From contig JAQGDQ010000761.1 in assembly GCA_030141605.1 (NCBI GenBank), forward strand, positions 1-64,000: a stretch of DNA of 64,000 bases, in the 5' to 3' direction. Below the pieces are notes generated by a model. It was not told where the DNA came from and searched no databases. It saw nothing but the letters and a program-made list of their open reading frames with translations. A program made the translations under genes and the position numbers. Of the stretch, positions 1-44,759 are shown one piece after another; within the stretch, counting starts at the first letter, position 1, and the number at the start of each line of letters is the position of its first letter. Source of the DNA: Tubiluchus corallicola (taxonomy: Eukaryota > Animalia > Priapulida).

Positions 1-1563
1 GTGATTCATAACTCAAATTACAGAAAACTACAGGTAGACGGCTGGGATTCACCTGTGATTCATAACTCAAATTACAGAAAACTACAGGTAGACGGCTGGG
101 ATTCACCTGTGATTCATAACTCAAATTACAGAAAACTACAGGTAGACGGCTGGGATTCACCCGTGATTCATAACTCAAATTACAGAAAACTACAGGTAGA
201 CGGCTGGGATTCACCTGTGATTCATAACTCAAATTTCAGAAAACTACAGGTAGACGGCTGGGATTCACCCGTGATTCATAACTCAAATTACAGGCTGGGA
301 TTCACCTGTGATTTACAAGTCAAATTACAGAAAACTACAGGTAGACGGCTGGGATTCACCTGTGATTCATAACTTAAATTACAGGCTGGGATTCACCTGT
401 GATTTACAAGTCAAATTACAGAAAACTACAGGTAGACGGCTGGGATTCACCTGTGATTCATAACTTAAATTACAGAAAACTACAGGTAGACGGCTGGGAT
501 TCACCTGTGATTCATAACTCAAATTACAGAAAACTACAGGTAGACGGCTGGGATTCACCTGTGATTCATAACTCAAATTACAGAAAACTACAGGTAGACG
601 GCTGGGATTCACCCGTGATTCATAACTCAAATTACAGGCTGGGATTCACCTGTGATTTACAAGTCAAATTACAGAAAACTACAGGTAGACGGCTGGGATT
701 CACCTGTGATTCATAACTTAAATTACAGAAAACTACAGGTAGACGGCTGGGATTCACCTGTGATTCATAACTTAAATTACAGAAAACTACAGGTAGACGG
801 CTGGGATTCACCTGTGATTTACAAGTCAAATTACAGAAAACTACAGGTAGACGGCTGGGATTCACCTGTGATTCATAACTCAAATTACAGAAAACTACAG
901 GTAGACGGCTGGGATTCACCTGTGATTCATAACTCAAATTACAGGCTGGGATTCACCTGTGATTCATAACTCAAATTACAGAAAACTACAGGTGAGGCTG
1001 GGATTCACCTGTGATTCATAACTTAAATTACAGAAAACTACAGGTAGACGGCTGATTCACTTGATTCATTAAATTACAGCTGGGATTCACCTGTGATTCA
1101 TAACTTAAATTACAGAAAACTACAGGTAGACGGCTGGGATTCACCTGTGATTTACAAGTCAAATTACAGAAAACTACAGGTAGACGGCTGGGATTCACCT
1201 GTGATTCATAACTTAAATTACAGAAAACTACAGGTAGACGGCTGGGATTCACCTGTGATTCATAACTCAAATTACAGAAAACTACAGGTAGACGGCTGGG
1301 ATTCACCTGTGATTCATAACTCAAATTACAGAAAACTACAGGTAGACGGCTGGGATTCACCTGTGATTCATAACTCAAATTTCAGAAAACTACAGGTAGA
1401 CGGCTGGGATTCACCTGTGATTCATAACTTAAATTACAGAAAACTACAGGTAGACGGCTGGGATTCACCTGTGATTCATAACTCAAATTACAGAAAACTA
1501 CAGGTAGACGGCTGGGATTCACCTGTGATTCATAACTCAAATTACAGAAAACTACAGGTAGAT
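1..1563 (-). repeat. 54-bp minisatellite (~30 copies, runs off window start) made of the CLTC acceptor plus the first codons of the next exon
   Basis: Unit gtgattcataactcaaattacagaaaactacaggtagacggctgggattcacct, with 37-bp deletion variants. The minus strand reads ...gaatcacag|GTG AAT CCC AGC CGT CTA CCT GTA GTT = VNPSRLPVV, the clathrin residues that follow YVQK. Confidence 0.95.
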
Positions 1564-2407
1564 TACTAAAATGTTTGTCTTGGGTGACCTTGGGAATTTT
1601 AGCTGTACATACACAGTGCGGTTGCTACAGCAACAGGTTGCAGGCAAAATTGCTCGCTGGTCACCTGATAGTTGACACAAACCGCTAGTAATACAGCAGT
1701 AGCATCAGTAGTCAGTGGGGAAGCAAAAACATGTATAATAATGACACTGTTTACGTTATTAGTGTGTTTTTAGAACAGAATAACCCAATAGGTGCTGTTT
1801 TAATGCATCAAATTATGCAAAAATTTTGCTAATCAAATAAAAATTTGCCTTGAGTAAAGTAATAAAATCGTCGTTACAGCAAAATGTGGCGTACAGTCAT
1901 GAAGTTACATGAAAAAAGGTGTCAAATGATCGGCGTCGTTAAGACGGGTCATTAAGCGGGGAGTCATTAAGTGAGGAATGTATTCTAGTTTGATATTTCT
2001 TTAACCATTTGCAAATGTTTGCTGTTTTTGTCGTTAATCGGGGGTCATTAAGTGAGGAATGTATTCTAGTTGGATATTTCTTTAACCATTTGCAGATGTT
2101 TGCTATTTTTGGGTTAAGTATTCAGATAATTTATTTATTTGCGAAAAATCTGCTAGTACCGCATGAAAAGTACTTCATTCATGTAGAAAACAGCATAAAA
2201 CCTTCAAAATTTACCTAAAAAGCACAAAAATGTGATCATTACAAAGCTTCAGAAACCATCTTCACAGATCCGCTAGCTCTTTTTAACTCCAAATACTCAT
2301 TGTAACAAAATTAACGAATATTCTGTAAAAAGTGAATTTCTCAACGTCCTGCAAGTTAATCAGGATAATGAAACTTGTAACTGCACCATTTGCTATGAAA
2401 AATTTCA

Positions 2408-2635
<228 letters not shown>

Positions 2636-3156
2636 CTAGTGACCATAAAACTGACCGATTTATCGACGGTAAAGATAGCGCATTTTACCATGATAATAAT
2701 AAGTACTGACTGATTCACACATTTATAATAAAAACACACATGGGTTAATAAGTAAATGCATAAAAAAGTAAATATACACACAAGTAAACAAAAACAAAAC
2801 TAGAAAATAAACCAAAAAATAAAATAACAAAAAAAAATACCGCAACTGAAAATACAAAATTGTCGTTCGGGGAAAGACTATGCTTATTAATACATTCCCG
2901 TTTCTGCAACATTAGGGACAAAAATTCAATTATCAAAAACAGCCAATCCGTTTAGAAAGTAAACAACAGTAAGTAAACAACAGAAAGTAAACAACAGTAA
3001 GTAAACAACGGAAAGTAAACAACCGTAAAAAAACGGGTTACAAAGACACTAACATCATCACATTATTATAATTGTAATTAACTTCTTCTGAAAGTAGTTC
3101 ATCAATATGACTAACATCTAATGAACAAGATTAATCAACGACTAACGACGCAGTAC

Positions 3157-3408
3157 CTGAATGTACTTAAAATGAACTTCCGGGTCCTGACTAAAGTTGA
3201 CGATGGAGCCCAGGAAGTAGAATAATCCCTCGTAGCTCTTGAACGACTCGAACAAGTCGATAAGCGACTGCGTCGTCAGCTGTTCGTGGTACTTGCTGGC
3301 TATTTGCACGGAGACTTGAAGATTCTGACGAATGTTCGCTTGCAGCATGGCTTTCAAACTTTCCAACGAATCTTCTACGGAGAGCGAGCCAAAATAATTC
3401 ACTAACCA
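3157..3408 (-). CDS. CLTC: Clathrin heavy chain coding exon 13 ([10 protein letters not shown]...HFKYIQ)
   Basis: 252 nt, ttcag|TGG...CAG|gtac; CHC peptide. Confidence 0.97.
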
Positions 3409-3592
3409 CTGAAGCAAAAGCGCAAAGTAGAGTCAAATTAGCATCAGTTATTACATATAAATTAATTAATTATTATAAATTATCTAAATTCACAACCTGG
3501 CAAATAAGAAGCCATTAAAAAAATCAAATAAATTACCAAAAGTGTCCTGGAGGCACAGAAACCTCATGTCAATGTTCCTACAGCAGAAAGAA

Positions 3593-4085
3593 CAGGGATG
3601 AGAATGACAATTTGCAAAAAACTCTGAAACAGGCCAAGGGTTTTGGGACCACCTAGCCCCCCAATGGGGTTGAAATTGCAATTTTATGACCGTAGAGAGC
3701 CTCTAAGTGGACTTAAAATATCAGTTACCTTGTTTCATGCATAATTTAAAATACCCATCTATCAAGGATACATGATACCTAATTTTCTCAAAAACGTCTA
3801 AGTACTGGCCGCTCCTATGCAAAAGTAAATAAAAACTGTCTGCAATTGACTCAAATAACTCCGCACAATTGATTCTATATTTTTATACATAGAGATCTAC
3901 ACGTGGTTACACTGATGTATGTGATGTAAACAAAGTGACGGCCTGCCAACTAGCGGTCAGCTTGTGAAATAATGTACTGGGTCCGTAAAAATTTTCTCAA
4001 CGAATTTACGCGATTTACAAAAATGGCACTACTGGTCTTCCAAAAACTCGGAATTCTGCGTATCCGCGGAAAATTCCCATCCCTG
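3593..4085. mobile_element. Non-autonomous TIR element (CAGGGATGAGAAT termini, hAT-like)
   Basis: Starts cagggatgagaat and ends attcccatccctg. An inverted near-copy lies at 59347-59759; end fragments at ~14041 and ~27100-27163. No TSD seen for this copy. Confidence 0.75.
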
Positions 4086-4187
4086 CCTCCATCAAAAATA
4101 TAAAAAGACAAAAATACAAACAGAAAGGAAATATAATCCTAATAAAAAACTTTTTAACTATTAACACTAGATGTCAGCAGCAGTTAC

Positions 4188-4352
4188 CTCCGGGTTTAGC
4201 AGATGAGTATGTACAACAGCCCGCTTGATGTCATACAAGTCCGTGTAGTGTTCCAGAGCCCTCTGGAGGAGCCCGGCTTTCTCACATAGTTGAGCAATAT
4301 GGGCGCGATCGTAGTGGGTGAACATTTGATTACCCAGAATGGCATCTGCCAC
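4188..4352 (-). CDS. CLTC: Clathrin heavy chain coding exon 12 ([11 protein letters not shown]...HLLNPE)
   Basis: 165 nt, cag|GTG...GAG|gtaac; CHC peptide. Confidence 0.97.
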
Positions 4353-4398
4353 CTGTCGGCAAGTAAACAAATGAATGAATATCGGAAAATGCAAAAAA

Positions 4399-4860
4399 GT
4401 AAACAAAGTTGCATGATACGGTAAACAAAGTTGCCTGATACGGTAAACGAAGTTGCCTGATACGGTAAACGAAGTTGCCTGATACGGTAAACAAAGTTGC
4501 CTGATACGGTAAACAAAGTTGTCTGATACGGTAAACAAAGTTACATGATACGGTAAACAAAGCTGCGTGATGCGGTAAACAAAGTTACATGATACGGTAA
4601 ACAAAGTTGCCTGATGCGGTAAACAAAGTTGCCTGATGCGGTAAACAAAGTTGCCTGATACGGTAAACAAAGTTGCCTGATACGGTAAACAAAGTTGCCT
4701 GATACGGTAAACAAAGTTGCATGATACGGTAAACAAAGTTGCCTGATACGGTAAACAAAGTTGCCTGATACGGTAAACAAAGTTGATTGCTACGATAAAC
4801 AAAGTTGCATGATACGCTAAACAAAGTTGCCTGATACGGTAAACAAAGTTGCCTGATACG
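4399..4860. repeat. 22-bp minisatellite (~21 copies)
   Basis: Unit gatacggtaaacaaagttgcct; ends ~45 nt from the exon 12 acceptor. Confidence 0.95.
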
Positions 4861-5339
4861 ACGAGTGTGATATTTGCTGATCAACTATGAAAATCCTTGT
4901 ATTTTCACCACATCACACTGGAAGCTAGGAGTAAACGAGTGGTCTTTAACACCAACTCAGTGACCAAGTGACTGAGTTCTCTCTTTTTATCCATCGAAAA
5001 GTTCAATGTGACAAAGAAAACATTTTTTGTTTATCATTGAATGTCTGAGTTTAAGTAGACGACTTAAATTTTTGCTAGACAACTGTAATTTTGCTACACT
5101 GCGTAAGTTATGCTTCTTAATTAACCACCTCACTGCCTGTATGATGAGAATCTCGGATCACGAAAATGTTATTCTGTCTAGCCCGTAGAATGAGGTTGTG
5201 TCATCAGGCTTAATATGCAAATTAACTGACACCTACGCCAGCAACAACGATACGTGCATATGCCAGGTACACTTTATTAATCAGGCTAGTGAAAATGAAC
5301 AGTAGTGCTGTCCTCTGTTGGCCAAAAAGTCAATATATA

Positions 5340-5776
5340 CAGTGTTCCCTCACTTATCGCGGGTGTTCCGTTCCAGGCCCATCCGCGATAAGTGAATTTC
5401 CGCGAAGTAGGGACGCTATACTTATTTGCGGGCGCAAGTACTACATTTCATTTTTGGTGTGTATTCATCCGCCAAATAAATACACTATTTACTGTAAATG
5501 GTATTTTTTTATGATTTATAATATTCTTTTAATGTTAGAATTAGTATTTTTAATATATTTTTCTACATTTTGTGATTTTTTTATGCAAAATTCATGAACT
5601 CAATACATTACTGTACAATACGTACTGCGCATGTGCAAAAATACTTTAGGTGGAGTATCGCAAAAACCCGCGAAACAGCGATAATACCGCGATAAACATT
5701 TTGCATTAATATTTTTGAAAACCCGCGAAACAGCGAGTCCACGATCAGCGAACCGAGAAGTAGCGAGGGAACACTG
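5340..5776. mobile_element. Tc1/mariner-pogo (Tigger-like) MITE
   Basis: TIR CAGTGTTCCCTC(A/G)CT at both ends, flanked by TA (5338-39, 5777-78). Confidence 0.88.
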
Positions 5777-5913
5777 TAGGCCACAAAAGATTTCTGCTAT
5801 TACTGAAAGATTGCCGCCATTACTGAATGTTCATTGGAGCCTATTGTTAACAAGTCAAGCAGCACATGATAAAAATGACTCAAAGGCGAAAAAAGAAGGA
5901 AAAATAAACATAC

Positions 5914-6051
5914 CTGAGGTGCAGAGACTAGATTCATCTCTAGCAGTCGAGTCTGCAGGGGACCCTCGGCTGGTCGGTTGTTCTTCAGTGCATCAAGTAG
6001 GAACGAGGTGCACTGCTGTATGAGATTGAACTCCATAAAAACATCAACTAT
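5914..6051 (-). CDS. CLTC: Clathrin heavy chain coding exon 11 (IVDVFMEFN...NLVSAPQ)
   Basis: 138 nt, ttacag|ATA...CAG|gtatg. Confidence 0.97.
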
Positions 6052-6195
6052 CTGTAACGTAAACAATGAGAGTAATGAATAAATACAGTTTGAATAGAAT
6101 AGTTTGCAAAATAGTTACTCCAACGTGGTTAAATTAGAGTTGTAAAAGACACGTTACACGATTATCAGTACGTTAAAGCAAAACCTTAATGTTTA

Positions 6196-6314
6196 GACTA
6201 CGGCCAAATCACGTTGAAAACACCGGTTCTCGTCTGAGCACCGAAGTTAAGCAACGTAGAGCCTGGTTAGTACTTGGATGGGTGACCGCCTAGGAATACC
6301 AGGTGCTGTAGGCT
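6196..6314 (+). pseudogene. 5S rRNA-derived SINE head (full-length 5S sequence)
   Basis: gactacggccaaatcacgttgaaaacaccggttctcgtc...gaagttaagcaacg...ttagtacttggatgggtgaccgcc...ccaggtgctgtaggct matches animal 5S rRNA including box A and box C. Confidence 0.9.
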
Positions 6315-6750
6315 TGTAGGATGCCCACACTGTATCTCGACACTAGGCGGAGGAGCTGCACAAGCAGCCAACGGCTAGAGGGCGGAGGAGGTCAACTGAC
6401 CCAACGGCCATGTGTAGAGGAATAAACTTTCCAAATCAGGAGTGGAGCCCCGAAGGCGGACCAGTGCAGGATGCTCACTGACTCCGGCAGCTCCTGCAGC
6501 CAACCTGGTGCCAAACGTATCGCTCCACTTTCGTTTGGACTACACCAGGGAGGAAGAGAGGGGGTTCCTGTTGTCTGGGCAACTCAGGATCTCCATACAC
6601 CTTGCCCAGGCGTGCGCCCTGGAGACGTTCAAGGATCGCACTGCTCAGCCGCAGTCGACGCTGCAGCTCCATCAATGTGAACGATAACTGACTCTCTTGG
6701 TGCACACTCCATTGTCTTCCGAGACAGAAGGATGCCAACAACAACAGAAG
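6196..6750 (+). mobile_element. Full-length 5S-rRNA-headed SINE (SINE3 type), copy A
   Basis: A ~119-nt 5S sequence runs directly, with no oligo-T terminator, into a ~430-nt GC-rich body ending GGATGCC(AAC)n. The body recurs at 20366, 22598 and 28191. Confidence 0.88.
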
Positions 6751-6854
6751 AAATTAACTTATGAGCTACGATCACATGGCAAATTAGGCATTAAGGGCAA
6801 ATTAATGAGATAAACAACAACAACAACAACAACAATACAAGTGTTTACACGTAC

Positions 6855-7037
6855 CTGGTTGATATCAGCTAACGGTTCATCGTCCGCTACCAACATCTGT
6901 GCAAACTGCAATCCCTGATCGGGATTAATCCTCATGACGCTCCGCAACAGGAAGATGTAGTCCGGAGTGTAACCGACCTTGTTGGCATACAGAATGATCT
7001 TATTGAACTGGTTCGTCTCCGCAAAGCATTGTATAAC
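6855..7037 (-). CDS. CLTC: Clathrin heavy chain coding exon 10 (VIQCFAET...LADINQ)
   Basis: 183 nt, ttcag|GTT...CAG|gtacg. Confidence 0.97.
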
Positions 7038-7056
7038 CTGAAACAGAGTAATCATG

Positions 7057-7380
7057 TGAGAGAAAATTTAAGAGAAAATATGATCAGAGAATATAATTAA
7101 AGTAAGAATATTAATTAGCTGAATCTAACATAATTATTGTAGAAAAAAAGAAAAAATCTGTGCGTAGATCCCCAGGAATTGAACCAACTGCCTTCACATT
7201 AAGAAGCAATATAGTTCTTAGAGAGTAAATTTAAGAGAAAATATGATCAGAAATATAATCTAAATAAGAAAATTAATTAGATGAATCTAACATAACTATG
7301 TTAGAAAAAAAAGAAAAAAGCTGTGTGCACTATCCCAGGAATTGAACCAACTGCCTTTACATTAAGCAATATAGTTCTTA
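7057..7380. repeat. Tandem duplication of ~163 bp
   Basis: gagag..aatttaagagaaaatatgatcag...gcaatatagttctta occurs twice back to back with scattered differences. Confidence 0.85.
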
Positions 7381-7580
7381 TATATAAAAAATTAATTGTA
7401 AGATTACTCAACTATATCTATAACCTAAAAGATGGCAAATCAGTACATAAAGTACAAGTACTTTAGTTAAAGAATTTTATCACCAATCATTCATTTCGAA
7501 CTAAAATCAACCGGTAAAATCAATCAGGGGATTATTAATCAAACATTAACATAAAGGTAGCAGCTTCTTCCAAAACTTAC

Positions 7581-7673
7581 CTTTGCCGGGACATTAGCTC
7601 TAAGGTAAACGGACAAAGCCAGAGTAGCATCAGTTCCGCGTACAAGGTCACCGAGCTCCTCGCTACACTCCAG
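7581..7673 (-). CDS. CLTC: Clathrin heavy chain coding exon 9 ([11 protein letters not shown]...RANVPAK); not in ORF track
   Basis: 93 nt, tag|CTG GAG TGT...AAG|gtaagt; translated by hand. Confidence 0.96.
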
Positions 7674-8494
7674 CTATTACAAGAACAAAATAATCTCTGA
7701 TAATCGTAACATAGATTAGTTCTTAATAACAAACAGCATTAAAAAAAACCCACAACTAAAAAGCAATGAGGAAGGAATGAAACGGTAACAAATGTTTAAA
7801 ACTGTCACTGTAATTTAACCTTCAGATGAAGAAAAAAGGACAAAACATAAATAAATCAACAGGAACTATTAGAACAACTGAACTATTTTTTGTTATATTA
7901 TTAAGGCATTAGCAAAGGCCCCGCAAAAAATTTTGCATATAAATACACTTATATATAATCAATAATGCGCGAACATCCTACATATTCCTCATTCATAATG
8001 CAAAGCCAGTAGCAGCTTTTACTGAATTCAGTTATAAGGTTATAGACAGAGCATAATGGATGACGTCAGAACAATGGCTTTGCGTCAGCAGTTTTCTAAG
8101 CGAAAATTGCCAAAAATAGAACATCTAATTAACTCGTCTGCACTCCTCTTGGTGGACCTGCCCTAAACTATAGCCCACATCATCGTGTAGCCCTGTTCTC
8201 CCTCTTTCTAAAGAGCTATATATATCCTTTCGAGTCCCACCAGGCGCCGCTAGAACGTTATTAAGGCCTAAAAGGATATCATATTAAGAAGGATAATGTG
8301 CATAGTTAAGTGAAAAAAGGTGTCAGCTGATCAGCAGCGTCTAAACGCAACATCGGGAATCGCTAAACAGTAAGTCTTTAAGCAAAGACTTACTGCACAC
8401 ATATCCAAGTGCCACGCCCGCCAGAGACGCGGCCCTTTTTTAATCATCTTTGTTTTTAGGAACTATCTCTGTCGAATCCCAGCAAGTCACATAC

Positions 8495-8695
8495 CTTATC
8501 TTCCTTCAACCATTTTTCAATCAGCTGTTTCCTGCCCTGCTGCAGGACCGGTCGGCACAGTTCCAGCGACTCGTACTTGTTCAGCTGACCCTGGTCAAGC
8601 AGTATGCCGAAATACTGCAACTGGGGCGAAGTTTGACCGGCTTGCGCTGGACACTGCTGAAACTTCTGGATGGTCTGAGGCGTTCTCAGTATTCC
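8495..8695 (-). CDS. CLTC: Clathrin heavy chain coding exon 8 (GILRTPQTI...KWLKEDK); not in ORF track
   Basis: 201 nt, tttag|GGA ATA CTG...AAG|gtatg; translated by hand. Confidence 0.96.
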
Positions 8696-8882
8696 CTAAA
8701 CAGTATATGAAAGTCGTATATATATATATTTAACGATAACATAATATACGTAATTAGAACATAGTACAACCTCGGTTCACGTGGAACTTGTTTCACGAAC
8801 AAATCGGTTTCCAAACAAATTTTTTTGAACAAATTTTGACTCTGTTTAAGTACGATAATTCGGTATGTGAACGGATGACCAA

Positions 8883-9027
8883 CCCATGCTACCGGCCTCA
8901 ATTCCATGTACCCATGCTACCGGCCTCAATTCCATGTACCCATGCTACCGGCCTCAATTCCATGTACCCATGCTACCGGCCTCAATTCCATGTACCCATG
9001 CTACCGGCCTCAATTCCATGTACCCAC
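8883..9027. repeat. 28-bp tandem repeat (~5 perfect copies)
   Basis: Unit cccatgctaccggcctcaattccatgta. Confidence 0.95.
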
Positions 9028-9714
9028 GCTCACTTGTTCTTAGCCGCATGCAACGTACAATTTGTTTGGTGGGTTGGTGGGTGGCTCTGTTAGAAAACAT
9101 TACTTTTTGCTTTTTTAACCAGTTTTAGTTCTCAATATGGCTCCCATGAAAGAAAAAATATATCAGCTCTAAAAAGTCTAAGCGAATATTAATTATATTA
9201 TATAAAAATATAAATTAAATAAAATTACCATCTTTCTGGGGCTGGAATGGATTAAATGTATTTACGTTAATTTTAAAGAAAAAAAAACTGATTAGGTGGG
9301 AGTCGAACTCGGTCCGTAAACCAAGTGCAGGAACGAATTGTTTTATAGCTTTTAATTACGTCGGCAATAATTAACAATCAATAGCATTGACAATGCATTT
9401 ACAGTGACAAAGAATTATTATAAACAGAAATCTTTTATCAGTAATTAAACTTGTATGTACATATAATATACAACAGGTAATACGACTTCGACTATAAATT
9501 CGTCAACAAGCTTCCAAAAGGGTCTCGCGGAATCTGCTTTGAAAACGTTTGCCGTTAATTCGTGAGTAGCACAGAATAATTGTTACTGAGGAGACAAGAC
9601 CATGACAAATTTTAAAGACAGTATGGTTTAACTATACCGCCAGTTCAGCAACCAACCAAAGAACAAAAAGCTAATTCATTGCATTCCTGTGTCTATTATT
9701 ATGAAAATGAATTA

Positions 9715-10099
9715 CAACCGTTTGTTCCCAATGTATCCTATGGGATACACAACATTCTTTGTCATGTGCAAAAAAACAAAGTCCGACTTTTTTAAAAACA
9801 CAACAAAAGCAAAAAATGTGCTTCATTTTGCAACTGCTGATAATTTTTTAAAGTATTTAAGACATTTAGTATGCATGCTATGCTGATCTGTACAAAGTCG
9901 TCTCTAAAGTACTGTACCTTGCGCAGTTTTTTATGCTATGTAGATTTTCTAGTTTGCCATTTTATCACAAGTTTTAGTCTATTGTTATTGGCTTAAATCA
10001 AAATAACTATTAACAGATCCCAGTTTTATAATTTTATCAGTTTTAAAGGCAGAAAATATTCTCGTATCCCACAGGATACAACTGGTATGAAAGGGTTAA
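9715..10099. mobile_element. Degenerate piggyBac-like MITE
   Basis: The right end gtatcccacaggatacaactggtatgaaaggg-ttaa is the inverted match of the left tgtatcctatgggatac; the left terminus is eroded. Confidence 0.5.
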
Positions 10100-10154
10100 C
10101 TACACAAACGGCACCTTGCGAAATTTTACAAACCGATGATTAATTTCCTCGTAC

Positions 10155-10352
10155 CTTCGGTGCGCTGGCAGCAACTTTGGCAGCCTCGGAATAATTACCC
10201 TGACTGAACAACGTATTAAACTTCCGCACGAACAGCTCCTCCGCGCCGGCTAAGTTATTCCTCACGGCGATGCGGAGGGCCAAGTCCGGATTCTGCAGGA
10301 CGTTGGTGATGTAAGGTATGATGTTGTCCTCCTCCACGCTGACAGACAAAAC
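10155..10352 (-). CDS. CLTC: Clathrin heavy chain coding exon 7 ([10 protein letters not shown]...AASAPK)
   Basis: 198 nt, ttgcag|GTT...AAG|gtacg. Confidence 0.97.
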
Positions 10353-10440
10353 CTGCAAGATATTTAAATAAGGTATTTGAGACTTTGATGATAAATTACC
10401 CTAGACCAGTTATAATATATTAGTTTTATTCCCACACAAA

Positions 10441-10467
10441 CCGTCACATTAGTGTCAGAAGTGGGAT
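10441..10467 (+). mobile_element. LTR-retrotransposon remnant: LTR end plus tRNA-Leu primer-binding site
   Basis: ...gtcaca-t-TAGTGTCAGAAGTGGGAT is a 17/18 match to TGGTGTCAGAAGTGGGAT, the complement of a tRNA-Leu 3' end. Confidence 0.6.
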
Positions 10468-11641
10468 TTATATGTTTATGAAAACCAATGTAAAAATTGC
10501 TCCAGAAAATGCGATACCCACAGAGGCTATGCTAGATGCCAGCACATGTCTTTAGGTTGTACTGAAGTATATCACAAAGCAGCGGCCGACCAGCAAGTGG
10601 CACCTGGCAATTGTTAGTATATGTAGTTTGTACTAGAGAGAAAAGAATTATGTAATAAACGTGAAAAAGGAAGTTAGGTAGGTCAGTAAGAACAGGATGG
10701 CGCTAAAAAACAGTTTGGAGAAAGAAGGTCATGGGAGTAGGTTTACATATTATAGTTTTAGTTTTTTGAGAGGTGATTATATTCTCATTTTTGTAGGAGT
10801 TTAATTATAATCATATATTAGTTTGTATTAATAGAGAGAAATTTTGTATGCGTATAATTATAATATTTTTCAAGGAAAATGTTATGAAAGGAATAAGGAA
10901 GACAAAAAACAAATACAAATACAGGTTTTTGGAGTCCTCAGGAGGAACTTGAACTTAAGAAGCTGTCAAAGAGGCAGTTATATGTGGTTCCGTACGCAAA
11001 TGTAAATAACATACCAAACCACACTGAACACAAAGCCGTTGCAACCCTGTTTTCATTAATTAATTAACACTTAGGAGGCACAAAAGCTACACATTAAAAA
11101 GAACATGGATTTCCCTAACGAATATGCCAAAAATGCCCATTTTTCAAGTCTTTGTATATTTGTTTGGAAATGAGCTAAATATATAAACTTTACACCAATT
11201 TGTAGATCAATTCAAGCCATACAAATGCCACTATAGTTTTGTTTATAATGGTAATTGCTATCTGTTTACAGTAGTTTATATTGTATGCAAAAATTCAAAT
11301 TTGCGAAAACTGGTCCATACTTATTAGTTAATAAATTGTAAAGACCTCACATAGCTTTGAATTTTAGATAATTTCTCTATTGTTTTGAAACAACTAACAC
11401 AGTACCGAATTGCAAAAAGAAATAAAAAAGGAGGTATGCACTACACGGAATTTGGCTACCCAGTTATCATTTTTCCTTAGTAAACGAAAAATGACTTTTT
11501 CAGGCAAAAATCTTCCACTACACTCTCCACTAGTATTCTTGCAACATGGGAAATGCTTTCCCTTTATTCATTCGTTCAGCTATTAGAAAACTTCTGCAAT
11601 TTGATTTTTCAACTTACATAAGCTGCCTAAAATGATATATA

Positions 11642-12297
11642 TGTGAGCTTGCAAACCAAAACCGTTCATAAGTCGGCATAGTTAAAACTACGCTATGATG
11701 CTTCAATTTAGAAAGCACCAATTTGGTCAAATGTCGATTTTTTATTTTTACGAAAACAAATGCTAAATATATTGGACTTTTATATTCTAGCATCAAATTA
11801 TCAGCAAAATCTCCAAAAAATACTAAAAATCTAATTTTATTACTCCTTACCCAATTTTCTGTCTAGAAACTAGTACTGAAATTGTAAAAAAACTTGTATT
11901 TTCTAACTCCAGAAATTGTAGTTCGTGGAAGCAGCTGTTTTGCTTCGGGTTTTTTCTGTTTTGACAAGACCAGATCTTCGTCAGGAAGAGCCATCTACTG
12001 GACTTAAACATAACTTCAATTTGCTCTTGTAAAATCCATAGCAACCACACTTTCGTACGGTTGCTAAGTGTTTTGTAGAGACACGGTAAAAACAATGGCT
12101 AACTTTAACAGCGATTTTCTCAAAATTACGTTTTTCAGTGTGCAGCCTGCACCTCAACTTCAACGTGGATTATCTCAGCTCAGAAATAACATAGAGTGAT
12201 TCATCACGAAATAATATCACGAAATAGAGATTCGGATGTGAGAATAACTAGAAAAGTTTAATTGCTGACATGAACGATTTTGCTATGCAAGCACACA
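11642..12297. mobile_element. ~650-bp MITE, TGTG(T/A)GCTTGCA termini in TA context (superfamily unassigned), copy 1
   Basis: Imperfect TIRs tgtgagcttgcaaaccaaaaccgttcat / atgaacgattttgctatgcaagcacaca. Related copies at 16481 (inverted), 58055 and ~62404. Confidence 0.8.
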
Positions 12298-13489
12298 TAT
12301 AGAATCTATAGGTTTTCCTAAACACAGATCCACATTTGTTTACTTAGGATTTCATATGCCATCTGACAAACTTTTAAGTGTTAGGGTAACTGGAATGTTT
12401 GGAAAATGTCTGCATATATGAGCATCGTGTCATTGAAACAATTAATAATGTTTGTTCAGCAATGACCTGTACCGATTGATTCTTGACTGGTTTATAACTT
12501 GCTTAGGAACCTCCATCTCAAAATGAAATTAGTTTTGAACACTTTCAAGACACAGGAACAACTGATACGCATTTCTGCTTGGCAAAGCTCTCCATATCAA
12601 GTGAAACGAATCTTCAGAATTGGAACTCTGTGTTACTATACTGAACGTGGAAAAATAATGTGTGATCTTCTACAATATATATGTTGAATTCAGCAAATAT
12701 ATTGAATCACAAAGATTATAATAAATTGATTGAATTAGGAACATTATTCCATAGCAGGATGCCGTGAAAACACTTCAACTATATTTGAATCAATAAACGA
12801 CTCATCAAACTAAAATAAAACAAACATTATAGATGGAATAAGGACAGTATAATAAAAAAAGAATTGTTTTTATTGGCTAAAAAACAGGTATTTTACAGGC
12901 AATTGTGGGTAATTCCCTCAGCGTAAACAATAGCAATATGCAACACTCTTTGAAATGCAAAATGATTGAATAACCCTAACATGATGCAGAAAAGTGCCCT
13001 CCCAATGATCGGTATTGTTGTTACGGAAACTTTAATGATCATTAAATAGACAATAATCAATTATTATTAGCAGTATTTTCGATAATGGATGGCAGACCGA
13101 TCAAAGTTTCATCATTGATCAATTTTATATCGATGAGAAAATTTTACTAATTATTTTCACTGACTCACAATAAGCCAAAATAAAAACTCTAAGCCAAGAC
13201 CATGCAACAATAATAAGAGGTAATTCAGACCGCTTTGCAAAATAGTCTCAACTACTTTCAAATGGCCTTAGAATAAGGGAGTTGTACAACGCTATAACCA
13301 TTCTCCCATTACATCATATGGTAGAATTTCTCATTTGTCAGTCGTTAGTCTAGTCCACTAGCGAAACTCGGGCGCATGCACGATCAGCATTGCCGAGCAT
13401 TAGAGAGGACGGATAAATTAAATGGATCTTCATTTGTTCCTGTTTGAAACTAATTACTCTCATGGTTGTCAAGCTTATAAAATCCTTAG

Positions 13490-13523
<34 letters not shown>

Positions 13524-14345
13524 TTATTTGGAAGTGTAAATACAAACACAATATCAAGAAACACTGGGAAAAAATAGATATTAATAATAATGATTATATG
13601 AGTCAATTAAGCGATTGAGTCTATTAACCAGGAGTCTATTAAGCGGCAACTGCAGTACTGATATATAATGTGTCGGCACAGTTGCAGTAGTGCTAATGAA
13701 ACTACAGTAATCACATTAAATAAACTTTCTTAATCCAATCATTATCTTTGAAACAGAAATCGAAACTGTGTGCCTGCCATAGCAACATTTTATTTGAACG
13801 TGAATATCTGAAAAATACGTTTGGAAAAATATTCGTTCAAGGTGGTCATTTTTGCAACCCTTTCCAATTCGCCGACTTTTCGCCCCATTTTCTTCATTTT
13901 ACCTGACTTTTTATCAAATTGTCTTTTTCCCTGACTTTCCAGAATAGCCTGTATTTTCAAGGATTTTCCCTGACTGCAAGAATCCTGTTAGATCGAACCG
14001 GCAAGAAGGCAAATCTTACAGTACTAGCTGTCAGCAGGTTCAGGGATGAGAATGACAAATTGCAAAAATGCAGTTTTGCTCCTTAAACTGACTAAGCACG
14101 AACTATGAGGGCTGTTTTACTTTTTTTACCGACCTCACGTCGGTTTAACAACAGTTAAAGCAAAACCGGAGCAGATCCGAAATGAAGCTGATTCTGAAGT
14201 GCCGAAGTAGTGAAGCTTTGTCCCACCCTAGTGGTTGTTAATTGTAGAGATCAGTTCAGCCAAGATGAAGACTTTACGCATGTGATAAACGCAAAAGCAA
14301 TACTTTCTATGTTAAATGCATTAGTATAAACATATCCAGGCTTAC

Positions 14346-14519
14346 CTGTCCTTTCCTATTTACGCCGATAATGCCGCTCGTCGCCTCGTGAGGTGCCGTT
14401 ACGAATATGGTGTCCCCGCTGATGCGATTCATGTATATACAAGTAGCAGTCTCCAGATCGTACAGGTGGATATATCCATATTTGGTGATGAGAAAGATAA
14501 CGTCGTGTTTACTGCTCAC
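14346..14519 (-). CDS. CLTC: Clathrin heavy chain coding exon 6 ([15 protein letters not shown]...VNRKGQ)
   Basis: 174 nt, ctacag|GTG...CAG|gtaag. Confidence 0.97.
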
Positions 14520-14650
14520 CTGTAGAAATGTGGCAAAGGTAGGTTTCATATTTCATGACGTACAATTAGCATACTAAAGATACTAAATTGTACATTATTA
14601 CTTTTTAAATTTATTGTAAAAGCTGGAAAGTGAAACAGCAAGTTAACTAC

Positions 14651-15878
14651 AACTACATCTAGAGTAAAATGTGAAAGTTGAAAAAGCATGTACAACTACA
14701 TCTAGAGTAAAATGTGAAAGTTGAAAAAGCATGTACAACTACATCTAGAGTAAAATGTGAAAGTTGAAAAAGCATGTACAACTACATCTAGAGTAAAATG
14801 TGAAAGTTGAAAAAGCATGTACAACTACATCTAGAGTAAAATGTGAAAGTTGAAAAAGCATGTACAGCTACATCTAGAGGAAATGTGAAAGTTGAAAAAG
14901 CATGTACAACTACATCTAGAGTAAAACATGAAAGTTGAAAAAGCATGTACAACTACATCTAGAGTAAAACGTGAAAGTTGAAAAAGCATGTACAACTACA
15001 TCTAGAGTAAAACGTGAAAATTGAAAAAGCATGTACAACTACATCTAGAGTAAAACGTGAAAGTTGAAAAAGCATGTACAACTACATCTAGAGTAAAACG
15101 TGAAAATTGAAAAAGCATGTACAAACTACATCTAGAGTAAAACGTGAAAGTTGAAAAAGTATGTACAACTACATCTAAAGTAAAACGTGAAAGTTGAAAA
15201 AGCATGTACAACTACATCTAGAGTAAAATGTGAAAGTTGAAAAAGCATGTACAACTACATCTAAAGTAAAACGTGAAAGTTGAAAAAGCATGTACAACTA
15301 CATCTAAAGTAAAACGTGAAAGTTGAAAAAGCATGTACAACTAAATCTAAAGTAAAACGTGAAAGTTGAAAAAGCATGTAAAACTACATCTAAAGTAAAA
15401 CGTGAAAGTTGAAAAAGCATGTACAACTACATCTAAAGTAAAACGTGACAGTTGAAAAAGCATGTACAACTACATCTAGAGTAAAACGTGAAAGTTGAAA
15501 AAGCATGTACGACTACATCTAAAGTAAAACGTGAAAGTTGAAAAAGCATGTACAACTACATCTAAAGTAAAACGTGAAAGTTGAAAAAGCATGTACAACT
15601 ACATCTAAAGTAAAACGTGAAAGTTGAAAAAGCATGTACAACTACATCTAAAGTAAAATGCGAAAGTTGAAAAAGCATGTACAACTACATCTAGAGTAAA
15701 ATGTGAAAGTTGAAAAAGCATGTACAACTACATCTAGAGTAAAATGTGAAAGTTGAAAAAGCATGTACAACTACATGTAAAGTAAAACGTGAAAGTTGAA
15801 AAAGCATGTACAACTACATCTACAGTAAGCATGTACAATTCCATCTAGAGTAAAACGAGAAAGTTGAAAAAGCTGTAC
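14651..15878 (-). repeat. 43-bp minisatellite (~28 copies) abutting the exon 5 donor
   Basis: Unit aactacatctagagtaaaa(c/t)gtgaaagttgaaaaagcatgtac; the last degenerate copy is the donor itself. Confidence 0.95.
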
Positions 15879-15992
15879 CTGCATGGCGACGGGGAAATCA
15901 TTCTGCGCTTCCGGTGGGAAAAACACGTCAACGGCTTTTTTGGTGAATGGCGTATTGCCGGTTGGCGGAGTTCCTACCTCAATAATGTGCAA
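15879..15992 (-). CDS. CLTC: Clathrin heavy chain coding exon 5 ([10 protein letters not shown]...DFPVAMQ)
   Basis: 114 nt, tttag|TTG...CAG|gtaca. Confidence 0.97.
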
Positions 15993-16480
15993 CTAAAACA
16001 AGCAAGAAGATATGACAATAGAGCACTCATCTGACACATTACATAAGCGAGTTGTCGTTGCCGTGACAACAAACAAAAAATTCATTTGGTTACTTCAAGG
16101 CGAAACGAATTTTCGGAATCCATCTTTTGCTCGTAGCGCTAGCACAAAACCATTTTCTCATTTGGCAATTACAATAAATTTATTGAATTAGTAACCTTAC
16201 ACTCCACATGAGAATGCAACTTAATACTAAGCATACACACTGGGCATATTTATTTTGCGTTTGAACTAACACTGTTGCCATAAATGTATTTAAACGATGA
16301 AACCATAAAAGCGTGATGTTTTATTGGTGATTAAATTGAGCTCACGTGTTTGTTAAAGCACGTTTAAGCAAATATTGTGTGCAGGGTAAAGTTTGCACAC
16401 ACCAAGCTGGGGCCATATCACTGTAATTTTAGGGATCTTTGATACCTTCCTCATGGAAAAACAAAGAAATTAAAATATTA

Positions 16481-17105
16481 TGTGTGGCTTGCATAGCAAA
16501 ATCGTCCAAAAGTCACCAATCCTGAATCTCCATTTCATGAAGATCATTTTGATACCAAGTTCATTGCTCTATGTTATTTCTAAGCTGAGATAATCCACAT
16601 TGAAGTTGAGGTGTAGGCTGCTCATTGAAAAACAATCTTGAGAAAATCACTGTTAAAGTCAGCCATTGTTTTTTGTCGCGTCTCTACAAAACACTTAGCA
16701 ACCGTACGAAAGACGCTATGGATTTTGCTAGAGCAAATTGAAGTTACGTTTGAATCCAGTAGATGGCTTTCCCGATAAAGATCTGGTCTTGTGAACAGAA
16801 AAAAAACCAGAAGCAAAATGGCTGCTCCACGAACTACAATCGGAGTTAGAAAATACAAGTTTTTTTTTACAATTGCAGTACTAGTTTCTGGACAGAAAAG
16901 TGGGTAAGGAGTTATAAAATTAGATTTTTAGTATTTCTTGGAGATTTTCCTGATAATTTGATGCTAGAATATAAAAGTCCAATATATTTAGCATTTGTTT
17001 ACGTAAAAAATAAAAAATCGACATTTAACCAAATTTTTCGTGCTTTCTACTTTATAGCATCATAACTATACCGACTTATGGACAGTATTGGTTTGCAAGC
17101 ACACA
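16481..17105. mobile_element. TGTG..GCTTGCA MITE, copy 2 (inverted relative to copy 1)
   Basis: ta-tgtgtggcttgcatagcaaaatcg...ttggtttgcaagcacaca-ta; the interior is the reverse complement of 11642-12297. Confidence 0.8.
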
Positions 17106-17318
17106 TATATCAGGTGGCATAAAAACGTCCCAAGATTACGAATGCGACTTCATTTGAAAATTATTATAGTGATCTTGCGTGAGTTCAAACATGAACATCA
17201 AATATTCTGGGTCATTTCTTAACATTTTTCAAAATACACACGAAAGTCTTAAATCCACAAGTCAAAAAATTAATGTTGGTAGAAGCTCGTATAACACTGT
17301 TGTTAAAATATTTATAGC

Positions 17319-17420
17319 TAGGGTTACCATACGTCCAGGTTTCCCCGGACACGTCCTCTTTTTGGGCCTCTGTCCGGGCAGGTTTCCAAAAAATCGGCAG
17401 TTTGTCCGGGTTTTGCCTCA
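17319..17420 (+). mobile_element. hAT (Blackjack-like) terminal fragment
   Basis: TAGGGTTACCATACGTCC... followed by repeated tgtccggg subterminal motifs; the opposite end was not found. Confidence 0.5.
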
Positions 17421-18112
17421 ATCCGTAAATATGTACGGACGTTGCCAACTGCAGAGGCGTACGACAGTACGAGACAAAGAAAAGCTCGTTAATTTTCAAT
17501 ACAAGATGTTGCTAACATCTCAAAATGCAACCCTTGTAAAAGCTTTGTGTACAAAAGTAAGCTATGCGCACACCACTGTAGAATTTGCATTTTATTTTGC
17601 ATTGTTTTTTATAATGTAAATTATAATTTCTGTATGTCAGTGCATGAAAATTAACGCCCAGTTTAATATACTTCAATATAGCAATATATAGATGCATCTG
17701 ATTTTCAGTTCCGTTATTTGCGTGATAATTTATTTTGATGACTATCAAAAATTATGCTTATTTCATGAAGTATGTTTAAGTTGTCATTGTTCTTACGTTT
17801 CCATTGTCAGATTTTTATTTTCAGTTGGTATTTGATTTTTATCATACACTTATATCATTACTGCACATGAATTGTATTAATATGTTATATATAACGCGTT
17901 ATAAACATATCAATTTAATGTCATTTGTAAGAATTAAATTCTAACTATAGGCAGTACTAACACTAATACACTGTAGCGCAGCACTTATATAAAAATGTTC
18001 ATCACTAACCAAAGGGCTGATGACCAATTGGCCTTTCGCTGCCCTTTCTTCACAATTTTTTTTTCAAATTAATTGTATTATAACTGTATGTGTGTTGCAA
18101 GATAAATAAAAA

Positions 18113-18190
18113 AGATTATGATTATGATTATGATTATGATTATGATTATGACTATGACTATGACTATGACTATGATTATGAATATGATTA
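18113..18190. repeat. Compound hexamer microsatellite (GATTAT)n(GACTAT)n
   Basis: Direct reading. Confidence 0.95.
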
Positions 18191-18274
18191 CCAACTGTCT
18201 GCTAATATATTGTTAAAATTGTCACTGTTTTTCCGACAGTTATGTAAACAATGATGCAAAAAATATTATGATAC

Positions 18275-18436
18275 CTTTCCGCCCTGAGCGCTCCGTACGG
18301 CGAAACAAAAGAGGGTAGATTTCTCCGCATTCCCCTCCATCTTGAATTGTGCAAACGCTGCTGCGTGCCCCTCGATTGGTTGACTGACTTTCCGCTCGAT
18401 AGAATAGAGCTGCATCGCTCCGACTACACGATTTTG
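18275..18436 (-). CDS. CLTC: Clathrin heavy chain coding exon 4 ([12 protein letters not shown]...SAQGGK)
   Basis: 162 nt, ttgcag|CAA...AAG|gtatc. Confidence 0.97.
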
Positions 18437-19050
18437 CTGCAAATGTTTGAATAAATCAACTTTATGCAGATTTCTCTCGGGTGACCTTATAAAACGTGTA
18501 AACTGGCCGTTTATGCGAAGCAACACATTAAAATTTCATTTACAGATATTCGAGAATGACAGAATGTGCATGTGGAATCTTAACACCAGGGATTTACTGT
18601 AAACTATAACTGTGATTAAAACACTAAACTCTATTTTATTAAAATATATACAACTCTATTGTAGTAAGTTTTGATTTTAATAAAACTATTAAATTAAAAG
18701 CCATGACGTCCAAACAGTCTCGTAAGCTCATTTTGCGTGGTCAATCGCGGTCAACAACAAAATTTAACAAACGCGTAATGTTATTTTGCTGTTTTGAATT
18801 AGCAAAATTACTACAAAATGGTTTAAATTAACAGCATCAAAACTTGATATTTTTCGAGGAACAGTTTTAGTGTCATAGTGAGCATAACCCGGTTTTATAT
18901 TTGCAATTTAAAATCGCCAGGTTCCTGAAAGAATTTCCAGGAATTTTCCAAAATTTTCTGAAAAATTTGGCATCTTTTGCAGACGAGAGGTCACACTGGT
19001 CAGATGACAATGGACATCATGAATGCAAAACTTACACTATCAGCTGCAAC

Positions 19051-19319
19051 TTGCGCTGTGATTCCTATCAGCAACAACCACTGCTGTTTCTCATCCGTAC
19101 GATAATTGATGATCTGACAACCCGCCAAACTGGAATGTCGATCGAACATTTTCACCGGCTGAGATTCGCCCTCCATCGACCAATGGTACACCGACGTTTC
19201 GGTTGCCATGGCGACCGTGTTCACGCTGATCCACTTCCAGAAGACGATTTCGTCGGACATGAGGTGAGCCTTCATTTTACTTTTCATTTCGATGTTGAAG
19301 ATTTGGAGTGTCTTCCCAG
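19051..19319 (-). CDS. CLTC: Clathrin heavy chain coding exon 3 ([15 protein letters not shown]...IGITAQ); an alternative donor extends it to 19036
   Basis: 269 nt, ttttcag|CT GGG...CAA|gttgca; a second in-frame donor AGT|gtaagt lies 15 nt further. Confidence 0.94.
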
Positions 19320-19371
19320 CTGAAAAACATACCCGGCTTAGTAAACACAACATTAATCTTTCAGTATAAAT

Positions 19372-19953
19372 TTACGACTCCGTGTGTACGCAATGCGTAA
19401 TCCGTGATGAACATTTGAACATGGTCGCTATCATCGGAACACGCACCACACATCATGCAGACAGGAAACCGCCATTACCTAGGTAATTATAGCGAGTTTT
19501 CATTTTTCCGGTGACCAATTTTGCTGTTTAGCTTTCTGAAAATTGCAATTAGGTGAGTTTTGTTCACTTGAAGACTTACAAACAGTAATATTTTTTCTAT
19601 TTCTGAGTTTTTGAAAGGTGGAAGAAGCATGTAGTTACGTATTGTGCATCTAACTGCAGTTTTTCCACTGACTGACATCTGCCGTATTGTTCTTTCCCAT
19701 GCTCCCCTAAATTTGCGCTTTCTTTTTGAATTTTCCTGTCTAGGTAGTAAGCTAACGCGGCAGCTAGCGTTATCAAGCTTAAATTTCAACAAAGACATGG
19801 CTTCCAAAATTTCACGAATAGCAACCAAAAATGGCGGAAAGAGCGCCGTGAGATTTGTTAATATGCATAGCGTTTATGGAAACGTGGAAACAGTCAATAC
19901 GCATCATGCATTACGAATCACAGGTCACGCATTACGTGTACACGGAGTCGTAA
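19372..19953. mobile_element. Unclassified ~580-bp TIR element
   Basis: ttacgactccgtgtgtacgcaatgcgt at the left is the imperfect inverted match of acgcattacgtgtacacggagtcgtaa at the right. Confidence 0.7.
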
Positions 19954-20365
19954 CTTAAGTAAAAATCTCTTTATGCTGCCTATTGTGGGAGTGCAAAAAA
20001 GTTGGCATTATTGTTTTGGATATAAGTACGTGGTGCCTCCTGGTGTTTGTTTTTCCTAGTTTAGACAGGTGAGCTAGGTCAGGAAATAGGCCATTGGCCT
20101 CATTTCACAGTTAGAATATGAAAGTAGTGTGTCACCGGTATGCGGCAAAGATGTAAGTTTCATTTCTTCACATTTTGTCATGTCATATTATTGTTAATTA
20201 TCATTATACCAGTTACTTGATGTTTAGACGTTGGTTTAGCAGAAAGAATTTTTAATTTTTCTTCAGATAGCCAGAAGTCGAACGCATGTCGCGTACAATT
20301 ATAATGTAATGAGGTGCATTAATACATACATGTCTGCGTAGATATGAACATTTTGTTTTGCTAAA

Positions 20366-20721
20366 GGGGGAGGAGGTCAAGTGACCCAACAGCCATGTGT
20401 ACAGGAGTAAACCTTCCAAATCAGGAGTGGAGCCCCGAAAGCGGACCAGTGCAGCATGCTCACTGACTCCGGCAGCTCCTGCAGCCAACCTGATGACAAA
20501 CGTATCGCTCCGCTTTCCTTTGGACTACAGCAGGGAGGAAGAGAGGGGGTTCCTGTTGTCTGGGCAACTCAGGATCTCCATACACCTTGCCCAGGCGTGC
20601 GCCCTGGAGACGTTCAAGGATCGCACTGCTCAGCCACAGTCGACGCTGCAGCTCCATCAATATTATCAATAATTGACTCTCTTGGCGTACACTCCATTGT
20701 CTTCCGAGACAGGAAGCCAAC
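20366..20721 (+). mobile_element. 5S-SINE copy B (5'-truncated)
   Basis: High identity to 6385-6735; no 5S head. Confidence 0.9.
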
Positions 20722-21086
20722 CAAGGACGTTAAGCAAGGTTGGCACTATAAAGGGGGGGGGGGCGTTAAAACGAGGTTTGAAAGTAATCCACTTTTTGAC
20801 TTATATTTATAAAAAAATCATTTTCTAAAGTGGAGTGTACATGACAACCGGATGCGGAGCATGCATTTCCTATGAAAAAAATCAATAGGAATAGGTGCAG
20901 AAAAACAATATAGCATAGCGCAGGCTGCACAGCGCACTGAAAACAATATAAGCTGATTTTATCTATTCCGCACACCGCAAAACGCATCCGGATGTTAGGT
21001 AAAGAACAAACATAACAGAAGCTCCCGAAAAAAAGCACAATAAAAAGGAGGATCACTGTTCCAGGCGCTATTCCATCATAGCCACG

Positions 21087-21690
21087 TCAATCAATCAATC
21101 GATCAATCAATTTATTTCACTCCAGCAATACATATACAATACATCAACATACCATATTATTGAAACAAAAAGAAACAGTATAGGTAAAAAAACGTTGATG
21201 AAGTCAAATTAACCAAATAAAAGAGTTGCTGTATGACACCTTGAAAGTTTGGCTTGTTAGGGTGGCACGAATGAGTGAATGAAAGAATGGTTAGGGTTAG
21301 TAGACATGATGGAATGGAAAAAAATAGTAAGATTAGGGATAGGAAGAAGGAAGGGAGGAGAGGATGAGTGAATGAAAGAATTGTTAGGGTAGGTAGACAT
21401 GATGAAATGGAAAAAATAGTAAGATTAGGGATAGGAAGAAGGAAAAGAGGAGAGGAAACGATCACAGTGTATGTTTAATTTACATAGAGCTATATTAAAA
21501 TAGCATTATAATTGATTGGAGGCCATATATTGTGACTGCATGAGACATGGAACCATTAAAATTGTATTATAAGTATGAATCAAAAATGGTCCTTTTCAAG
21601 TACTTTTTGAAACTATAAATAGTTTTGTGTATTTTTACTTGGGCACTTATTTTATTTCCATGAGCGAAGAGCCAATAGTGGTAACTAACA
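21087..21690 (-). mobile_element. LINE 3' fragment (CR1/L2 group) with AATAAA-(ATTG)n tail, copy 1
   Basis: The minus strand ends ...gaaataaattgattgatcgattgattga; ORF2-end-like SFKKYLKRTIFDSYL*; second copy at 25975-26500. Confidence 0.7.
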
Positions 21691-22597
21691 CCTAAAAAAC
21701 ACGTGTAGCAACTTGAATATTCAAGGACCACATAGAGGCTAGAGTACAGCATTCGCTCACGTTTTTATCATCATCCAAAGATGCTGGTAGTCTAGGATGC
21801 AGAAAAGTTCGTGCTATTCAAGTAACACGTCACGTATTGTTACAATCGATTACATTTCACATTATCCATCCCTTTCTAATCACACGTAGCTGATGAGGTA
21901 CCCCACATTCACTAATAGTACATGGTTGAAATCATAATTAAAGGCTTATTACACATTCATGAGATGTTTTATGAAAAATCAGATGCAAATGTCACATTCT
22001 ATTTGTTACGACACGTATATTTAGAACGCGTGACAATTTTCTTACAACACGTAATTCAGAATACTGTTAAAATCTGCACATGTTCATATTTAATGCTTAG
22101 TTTTTCACACTGGTTAAAAGCAGTGTGAATTTAAAAAATCACTACAGTTTGGGCAATATTGTTCCTTAGTGCAGTATTCATTCTATCATACCAGGTGGTT
22201 CATAAAAAACGTGCAGTGGTTTTGAATGCGATACTAAAAGGAAAAAACTGAATTGTTTGAAAATTCCCTTAACCCTTATAGGGTCACGATTTTTTACAAC
22301 CGATTTTTTAATAATCGGAGGGTAAAAAATTACCCCCACCATAATTCGTAAATTACTTTTGATGAACCGCCGTGTTTCATTAGTAAACAGCAACAGCATA
22401 ATTTTTGGTCATGCTGACCACCATAGGATACATTATACCGCTGCTTAAAGACATGTTACTTACTAGTAATACGAAATTTAAATTCACTTAGTTACGTTCC
22501 CTTATCTATGCTGGAATAACTGTAGACAACCGACATTGCTAGCGCGGAAAAATCATTGTTATTTTGAATTTATTGTCTACTACTTTCTTCTTTTAGG

Positions 22598-22980
22598 TGC
22601 ACAAGCAGCCAACGGCTAGAGGACGGAGGAGGTCAAGTGACCCAACAGCCATGTGTAGAGGAGTAAACCTTCCAAATTGGGAGTGGAGCCCCGGAGGCGG
22701 ACCAGTGGAGCATGCTCACTGACTCCGGCAGCTCCTGCAGCCAACCTAGTGCCAAACATATCGCTCCGCTTTCCTTTGGACTACACCAGGGAGGAAGAGA
22801 GGGGGCTCCTGTTGTCTGGGCAACTCAGGATCTCCATACACCTTGCCCAGGCGTGCGCCTTGGAGACGTTCAAGGATCGGACTGCTCAGCCACAGTCGAT
22901 GCTGCAGCTCCATCAATGTGATCAATAACTGACTCTCTTGGCGCACACTCCATTGTCTTCCGAGGCAGAAGGATGCCAAT
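22598..22980 (+). mobile_element. 5S-SINE copy C (5'-truncated)
   Basis: High identity to 6356-6738; ends ggatgccaat. Confidence 0.9.
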
Positions 22981-24769: not shown

Positions 24770-24963
24770 CTGTGAACTGAGAGGTACAGTGCCTGGTTTT
24801 TGTACAACGCATTGAACAGTTGTGAACTGAGAGATACAGTGCCTGGTTTTTGTACAACGCATTGAACACACTTGTGAACTGAGAGGTACAGCGCCTGGTT
24901 TTTGTACAACGCATTGAAAACCTGTGAACTGAGAGGTACAGCGCCTGGTTTTTGTACAACGCA
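24770..24963. repeat. ~50-bp tandem repeat (4 copies)
   Basis: Unit tgtgaactgagaggtacagcgcctggtttttgtacaacgcattgaaca(n). Confidence 0.9.
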
Positions 24964-25888: not shown

Positions 25889-25974
25889 GTAATTTCACAC
25901 CCATGTGCAAAATGTCTTAAAGAAAACATGCTTCATAAATACAGTTTAAAAATTCGTCTTGGAATAATAACGAA

Positions 25975-44756: not shown

Positions 44757-44759
<3 letters not shown>

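Follow-up and report, generated by a model that had tools for sequence, protein, structure and literature searches.

Minisatellite-like duplications of intron/exon boundaries have been described in amphioxus, where they are called mirages (PMC3087553). Reported host genes are the globins BflGb6 and BflGb9, Adh3, troponin C and PGBD5 (PMC3087553, PMC3902484). For BflGb6 it is reported that an intron's 3' end is repeated together with the 5' portion of exon 2, in 6 and 3 units, that splice signals are kept in many but not all repeats, and that RT-PCR suggests regular splicing (PMC3087553). The Adh and troponin C mirages are said to yield no aberrant mRNA (PMC3902484). A related situation is known from human F7, in which the 37-bp VNTR of IVS7 carries copies of a genuine splice site into the intron; the copy adjoining the exon wins over the identical repeated donors, and the extra sites are described as potentially functional yet silent (PMC1557585). 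Juxtaposed acceptors and donors are also found in the ratchet points of recursive splicing, which are described as conserved, located mostly in long introns and prevailing through a stronger donor (PMC8605326). In human UBC, tandem AGGT sites are reported to serve as both donor and acceptor (PMC10809524). Finally, the Rogers model of intron gain holds that an AGGT tandem duplication within coding sequence creates a new intron position (PMC3265369).

Here we describe a 54-bp minisatellite in the clathrin heavy chain gene of Tubiluchus corallicola. It lies at one end of the window, by which we mean the whole 64,000-nucleotide stretch of DNA that was analysed. Its assignment to the mirages already known from lancelets appears well supported, and the array is probably a duplicated splice junction, likely bypassed by ordinary splicing that joins exon 14 to the last copy in one step. 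The features of the gene and the array are the following.

2417..55549, minus strand: host gene, coding exons 1-14 of clathrin heavy chain, an 811-codon open frame (tblastn with homologues and inspection of boundaries)
2417..2635, minus strand: coding exon 14, encoding residues 734-806 of clathrin heavy chain (mammalian numbering) and ending in phase 0
1563..2416, minus strand: non-array part of intron 14, beginning at the real donor GTAAGA
1..1562, minus strand: minisatellite of clathrin heavy chain intron 14 with 30 unit starts, truncated at position 1 by the window edge
1550..1562, minus strand: intron-proximal array edge, 13 nt matching exactly the final 13 nt of the exon-derived half unit
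1523..1549, minus strand: first acceptor-like half unit, 27 nt with a CAG end and a branch-point-like word at -20
1496..1522, minus strand: first exon-derived half unit, nine codons VNPSRLPVV with a GT start
957..1090, minus strand: three irregular units (30, 52 and 52 nt) with short clustered deletions, each seen once

All 14 coding exons have GT-AG ends and together they contain no stop in 811 codons, the final phase being 0. Exon 14 (2635-2417) matches residues 734-806 of clathrin heavy chain with an E value of 2e-43. By summed tblastn score the best match is amphioxus clathrin, with the next scores less than 2% away. The animal's own clathrin protein was not found among the 120 matches listed for exon 3 (best identity 86%) or the 120 listed for exon 14. 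The visible part of intron 14 measures 2416 nt, and exon 15 as well as the far end of the array lie past position 1. Exon 15 is thus not visible within the window, as would be expected if the locus were a broken or truncated copy in which the array has taken exon 15's place, while a functional clathrin gene sits at another locus. However, exons 1-14 are intact, have canonical splice sites and are free of stops over 811 codons, and we consider a broken copy highly improbable. As a separate observation, the best donor at the end of exon 3 (GTAAGT, window 19050-19036) lies 15 nt past the usual block end of most homologues and adds five residues. The amphioxus protein P0082 likewise carries an insert at the exon 3 end, and an alternative donor at 19050-19036 is possible.

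The original prediction of an array of about 30 copies, each an acceptor followed by a VNPSRLPVV exon start, is confirmed. Tandem Repeats Finder gives a period of 54 and 29.7 copies for window positions 1-1562 on the minus strand, and exact period-54 identity stops at 1562 rather than at the predicted 1563. Splitting on the exon-start motif yields 30 unit starts, namely 22 whole units of 54 nt, one unit cut by the edge, four units of 37 nt and three irregular ones (30, 52 and 52 nt). The 54-nt unit consists of 27 nt with CAG at the end and 27 nt encoding VNPSRLPVV, and this exon-derived half opens with GT. The GT word is present at all 30 unit starts, but it is the word that defined the count of units. 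The AG is intact at 26 of the 30 and lost at four junctions, with CACGG for CACAG in three and TCAA in one. Each intact junction reads CAG/GT, and whole units are bounded by GT and AG with the branch-point-like word at -20. Because the exon starts with GT, the unit is an exact GT-AG cassette. Whole units are open over their 18 codons, except for two in which a T>A change creates TGA, while the four 37-nt units share one common 17-nt deletion and reach a stop after five codons. All the variant classes that had been predicted (the TGA change, the short deleted units and the loss of AG) are therefore present. Degenerate older copies upstream of the array were not found above control, the best local score being equalled in 123 of 382 control windows.

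What sequence does the unit copy? Among the 120 listed homologues, the residues following exon 14 begin with VNP in 110 and read VNPSRLPVV in 70. That these nine codons occur by chance somewhere in the visible 2416 bases of the intron has a probability of ~2e-8, and a chance match is rejected. The nine-codon match and the continuation in the homologues together indicate that the unit copies the junction between intron 14 and exon 15. This origin, proposed in the original prediction, is strongly supported by the unit anatomy, the frame of exon 14 and the expected exon 15 start in the homologues, and the authentic exon would lie beyond the window. Seven of the 120 listed homologue ORFs, all short, run V-S or V-R and then diverge, and appear to read into an intron at the exon 14/15 position. 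Two fish models skip to a later exon and one entry stops after the exon 14 block. The short ORFs P0030, P0050 and P0080 diverge 7 or 8 residues into exon 15 sequence, which suggests that in other organisms the intron is placed differently in this region. Solved structures queried with two units returned nothing at E 10, and a nine-residue match is too short for such a search. We also considered a 21-nt microexon before VV with the donor GTAGTT. It was rejected, since this donor scores -2.4 and is equalled by 43% of intronic GTs, and since two further codons match clathrin.

The array had also been likened to the AG/GT tandem-duplication model of intron gain. The likeness is that a duplicated AG/GT could in principle be excised exactly. 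In that model, however, coding sequence is duplicated (PMC3265369), whereas here an existing acceptor is duplicated and half of the unit has no clathrin match. No new intron position arises either, the seven short ORFs that appear to read into an intron doing so at this same place.

The architecture is instead that of BflGb6, i.e. an intron's 3' end plus the 5' portion of an exon in tandem. The clathrin unit spans the boundary of its host intron and exon (27 nt ending in CAG plus the nine codons expected after exon 14), the AG is retained in many but not all units (26 of 30), as reported for the globin mirage (PMC3087553), and recurrent variants and repeated blocks common to several units speak for turnover. 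Several differences set the clathrin array apart from the amphioxus mirages. BflGb6 has 3-6 units compared to at least 30 here, the host is an essential trafficking gene, and the clathrin exon starts with GT, so that the array junctions read AG/GT. Moreover, RT-PCR suggests regular splicing for BflGb6, whereas for the clathrin array it is predicted from DNA. A position directly against the authentic exon and length variation among haplotypes or cells also count as mirage features; the clathrin array runs to position 1 and is represented by one sequence. The F7 VNTR is likewise a minisatellite in which a genuine splice site is copied into the intron, but it repeats a donor downstream of its exon, while the clathrin array repeats an acceptor upstream of the exon.

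The order of the variants gives some information about how the array has grown. One substitution is shared by 8 units, a linked triple by 5 and the 17-nt deletion by 4. Of these four deletions, three come after the triple variant (p 0.009 by a test with 100,000 shuffles), and one block of four units is present twice. Recurrent variants in such a non-random order fit multi-unit duplication better than error. Slippage or unequal crossing-over may have produced the first duplication, perhaps starting from the 13-nt edge repeat, and later growth would have proceeded through duplication of several units at once. In the Haber and Louis model, short flanking direct repeats of typically 5-10 bp seed minisatellites (PMC3389668, PMC6947457). 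The 13-nt edge repeat fits this model, and a later deletion that trimmed the array fits equally well. Recurrent substitutions all fall in the intron-derived half of the unit (6 of 6, or four events if the linked three count as one), and the exon-derived half varies by deletion only. This placement does not reveal selection on the unit (p ~0.06 by hand, not significant, with few events).

The same data bear on the possibility that the array, or much of its length, results from mis-assembly or from an uncorrected long-read consensus. The array runs up to the window edge, short deletions that each occur once are clustered in three neighbouring units, and one amphioxus mirage was reported as mis-assembled in the draft genome (PMC3087553). 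The irregular units at 957-1090 may indeed represent old damage or consensus error, and the copy number is that of the assembled sequence. Random error, however, would not produce several variant types that recur in non-random order, and comparable arrays sit wholly inside other introns of the gene. An artefact is thus very unlikely.

How would clathrin mRNA be made in the presence of so many acceptors? The reading that we favor, as stated above, is a single step from exon 14 to the last copy. Only the last copy would precede the rest of the exon and its donor, and exon definition would favor this distal acceptor, much as the copy adjoining the exon wins in F7, although the F7 precedent concerns donors; that the last copy is complete is an assumption, the authentic exon being outside the window. 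The unit acceptor has 8-9 pyrimidines in 17 positions compared to 9-14 in the 13 real acceptors of the gene, and 14-20% of intronic AGs score as high. It is a weak acceptor, and thus it likely depends on the exon context of the last copy. Rare use of an upstream copy would mostly lead to a premature stop and be cleared by nonsense-mediated decay: reading through the intact upstream acceptors, 23 of 26 reach a stop within 5-110 codons. The unit junctions are not inert on paper, because they pair with U1 more strongly than 9 of the 14 real donors. According to the amphioxus reports, lancelet mirages with intact AG/GT signals splice normally (PMC3087553, PMC3902484), so no special mechanism is needed to account for tolerance of the array. 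The original prediction had invoked recursive splicing as the explanation of this tolerance, and that explanation is not required.

The intact acceptors could nevertheless have consequences. The three nearest the window edge (214, 106 and 52) meet no stop before the edge and could lengthen the protein by 18-residue inserts. With 26 of 30 acceptors intact, 23 leading to stops and three open, upstream acceptors might lower clathrin output through nonsense-mediated decay or add such inserts, and array length would then act as a dial for dosage or isoforms. For human exon-intron borders that carry repeats, alternative transcripts are described as frequent (PMC2812944). On the other hand, the lancelet mirages are reported without aberrant mRNA (PMC3087553, PMC3902484), inserts are unlikely to be tolerated in a region so conserved that 110 of the 120 listed homologues go straight to VNP, and the spread of both frameshift and stop variants does not suggest selection for frame. 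We regard a dosage or isoform role of the decoys as quite unlikely.

A further possibility, put forward in the original prediction, is recursive or nested splicing. Exon 14 would join an upstream unit and the regenerated AG/GT donor would be used again, or the GTs of units would splice to later AGs, so that the normal mRNA is restored exactly. Such an array would be self-correcting, since normal clathrin mRNA would result whichever acceptor was used first. In its favor, joining exon 14 to any intact unit regenerates AG/GT, the units are GT-AG bounded, and juxtaposed AG/GT, as in ratchet points, is present at 26 junctions. Human UBC is an example of tandem AGGT sites being put to use (PMC10809524). 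The near-consensus match claimed for the regenerated donor AAG/GTGAAT is borne out (8 of 9 positions), and this donor ranks in the top 4% of intronic GTs. Its strength relative to the gene's own donors depends on the measure. By U1 pairing (-6.9 kcal/mol) it is mid-range, better than 5 of the 14 real donors, but on a matrix built from these donors it scores 4.7, above only one of 14. Real donors start with GTA in 14 of 14 cases, whereas the regenerated donor starts with GTG and has A at +5. Both scores are crude, as the matrix comes from 14 sites and U1 was treated as a short duplex, yet they weaken the recursive idea.

Further arguments against recursive removal come from the junctions themselves. 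Over 27 nt the regenerated donor is identical to the junction expected from normal joining of exons 14 and 15, and that junction must not be spliced a second time. A GT is also regenerated at 4 of the 13 other junctions of the gene, and that of exon 5/6 scores higher than the array donor (6.8; -11.1 kcal/mol). In Drosophila, the exon junction complex is described as suppressing regenerated splice sites (PMC8184009). The array does share with ratchet points the juxtaposed acceptor and donor, and one can draw a short cryptic exon of ~50 nt (here 54 nt) followed by a donor (PMC8605326, PMC8184009). But ratchet points are reported to win via the stronger donor and to lie mainly in long introns (PMC8605326), whereas the visible part of the intron is 2.4 kb and the array donor is weak on the matrix of real donors. 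The donor of the next unit (5.2; -8.4 kcal/mol) exceeds the regenerated one (4.7; -6.9 kcal/mol), so that retention of a 54-nt unit would be favored, although the differences are small. With the UBC sites the array has in common the even spacing of AGGT and the fact that removal preserves the frame; the UBC repeats, however, are whole coding monomers with demonstrated use (PMC10809524), while the clathrin unit is half intron-derived and its use hypothetical. Recursive splicing of the array is thus not supported; the sequence arguments lean against it, though U1 pairing allows a usable donor. We judge stepwise removal unlikely, and a self-correcting array is correspondingly doubtful. A literature search on recursive splicing and minisatellites brought up no published account in which a mirage is spliced recursively, and passages of PMC13196383 draw no link between the two subjects. 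Searches on repeated acceptors likewise brought up no papers besides those cited here.

Apart from the array, the spliced exon 5/6 junction (15881-15879 joined to 14519-14512, minus strand) regenerates a donor that equals the gene's strongest by U1 pairing (-11.1 kcal/mol; matrix 6.8). Exon 6 is 174 nt long and frame-preserving, and may be a candidate suppressed recursive exon.

Arrays are not restricted to intron 14. Tandem arrays (period of at least 10, at least 3 copies) occur in 7 of the 13 other introns and make up ~13% of the remaining gene span, indicating that array formation is common in this gene. The following minisatellites were mapped, and none of them overlaps a mapped exon.

14648-15828: 43-bp minisatellite, filling 87% of intron 5
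29825-33790: 113-bp minisatellite
4399-4860: 22-bp minisatellite
8882-9030: 28-bp minisatellite
56962-57803: 61-bp minisatellite

No other tandemly duplicated junction was detected when 28 boundary 18-mers were searched in the gene with up to 3 mismatches; three had one distant extra match. A 163-bp unit is present in two copies at 7058-7380, and these stop ~20 nt short of the exon 10 acceptor, leaving the acceptor out. In addition, the same translated stretches recur in introns, in both orientations, at ~6420-6750, 20410-20810, 22640-23015 and 28100-28515; this four-place dispersed repeat is likely a short mobile element. At 63483-63998 on the minus strand, two open stretches have what we take to be a resemblance to the end of a non-LTR retrotransposon ORF. 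In this setting the junction array would have no function and be one among the many intronic arrays of the gene, and neutral clutter is its most likely nature.

Even so, the clathrin mirage is larger than the published globin cases and sits in an essential gene. Acceptor choice among dozens of identical copies could be studied on this natural substrate, and the unit variants are barcodes that tell which copy a read used. The array is also a warning for annotation, because arrays of this type may be taken for exons by mistake or cause assemblies to break. The array would be surprising only if RNA showed stepwise use of its units. If this were true, a minisatellite would have built a natural ladder of at least 26 ratchet points, and the locus would be a direct test bed for the origin of splice sites.
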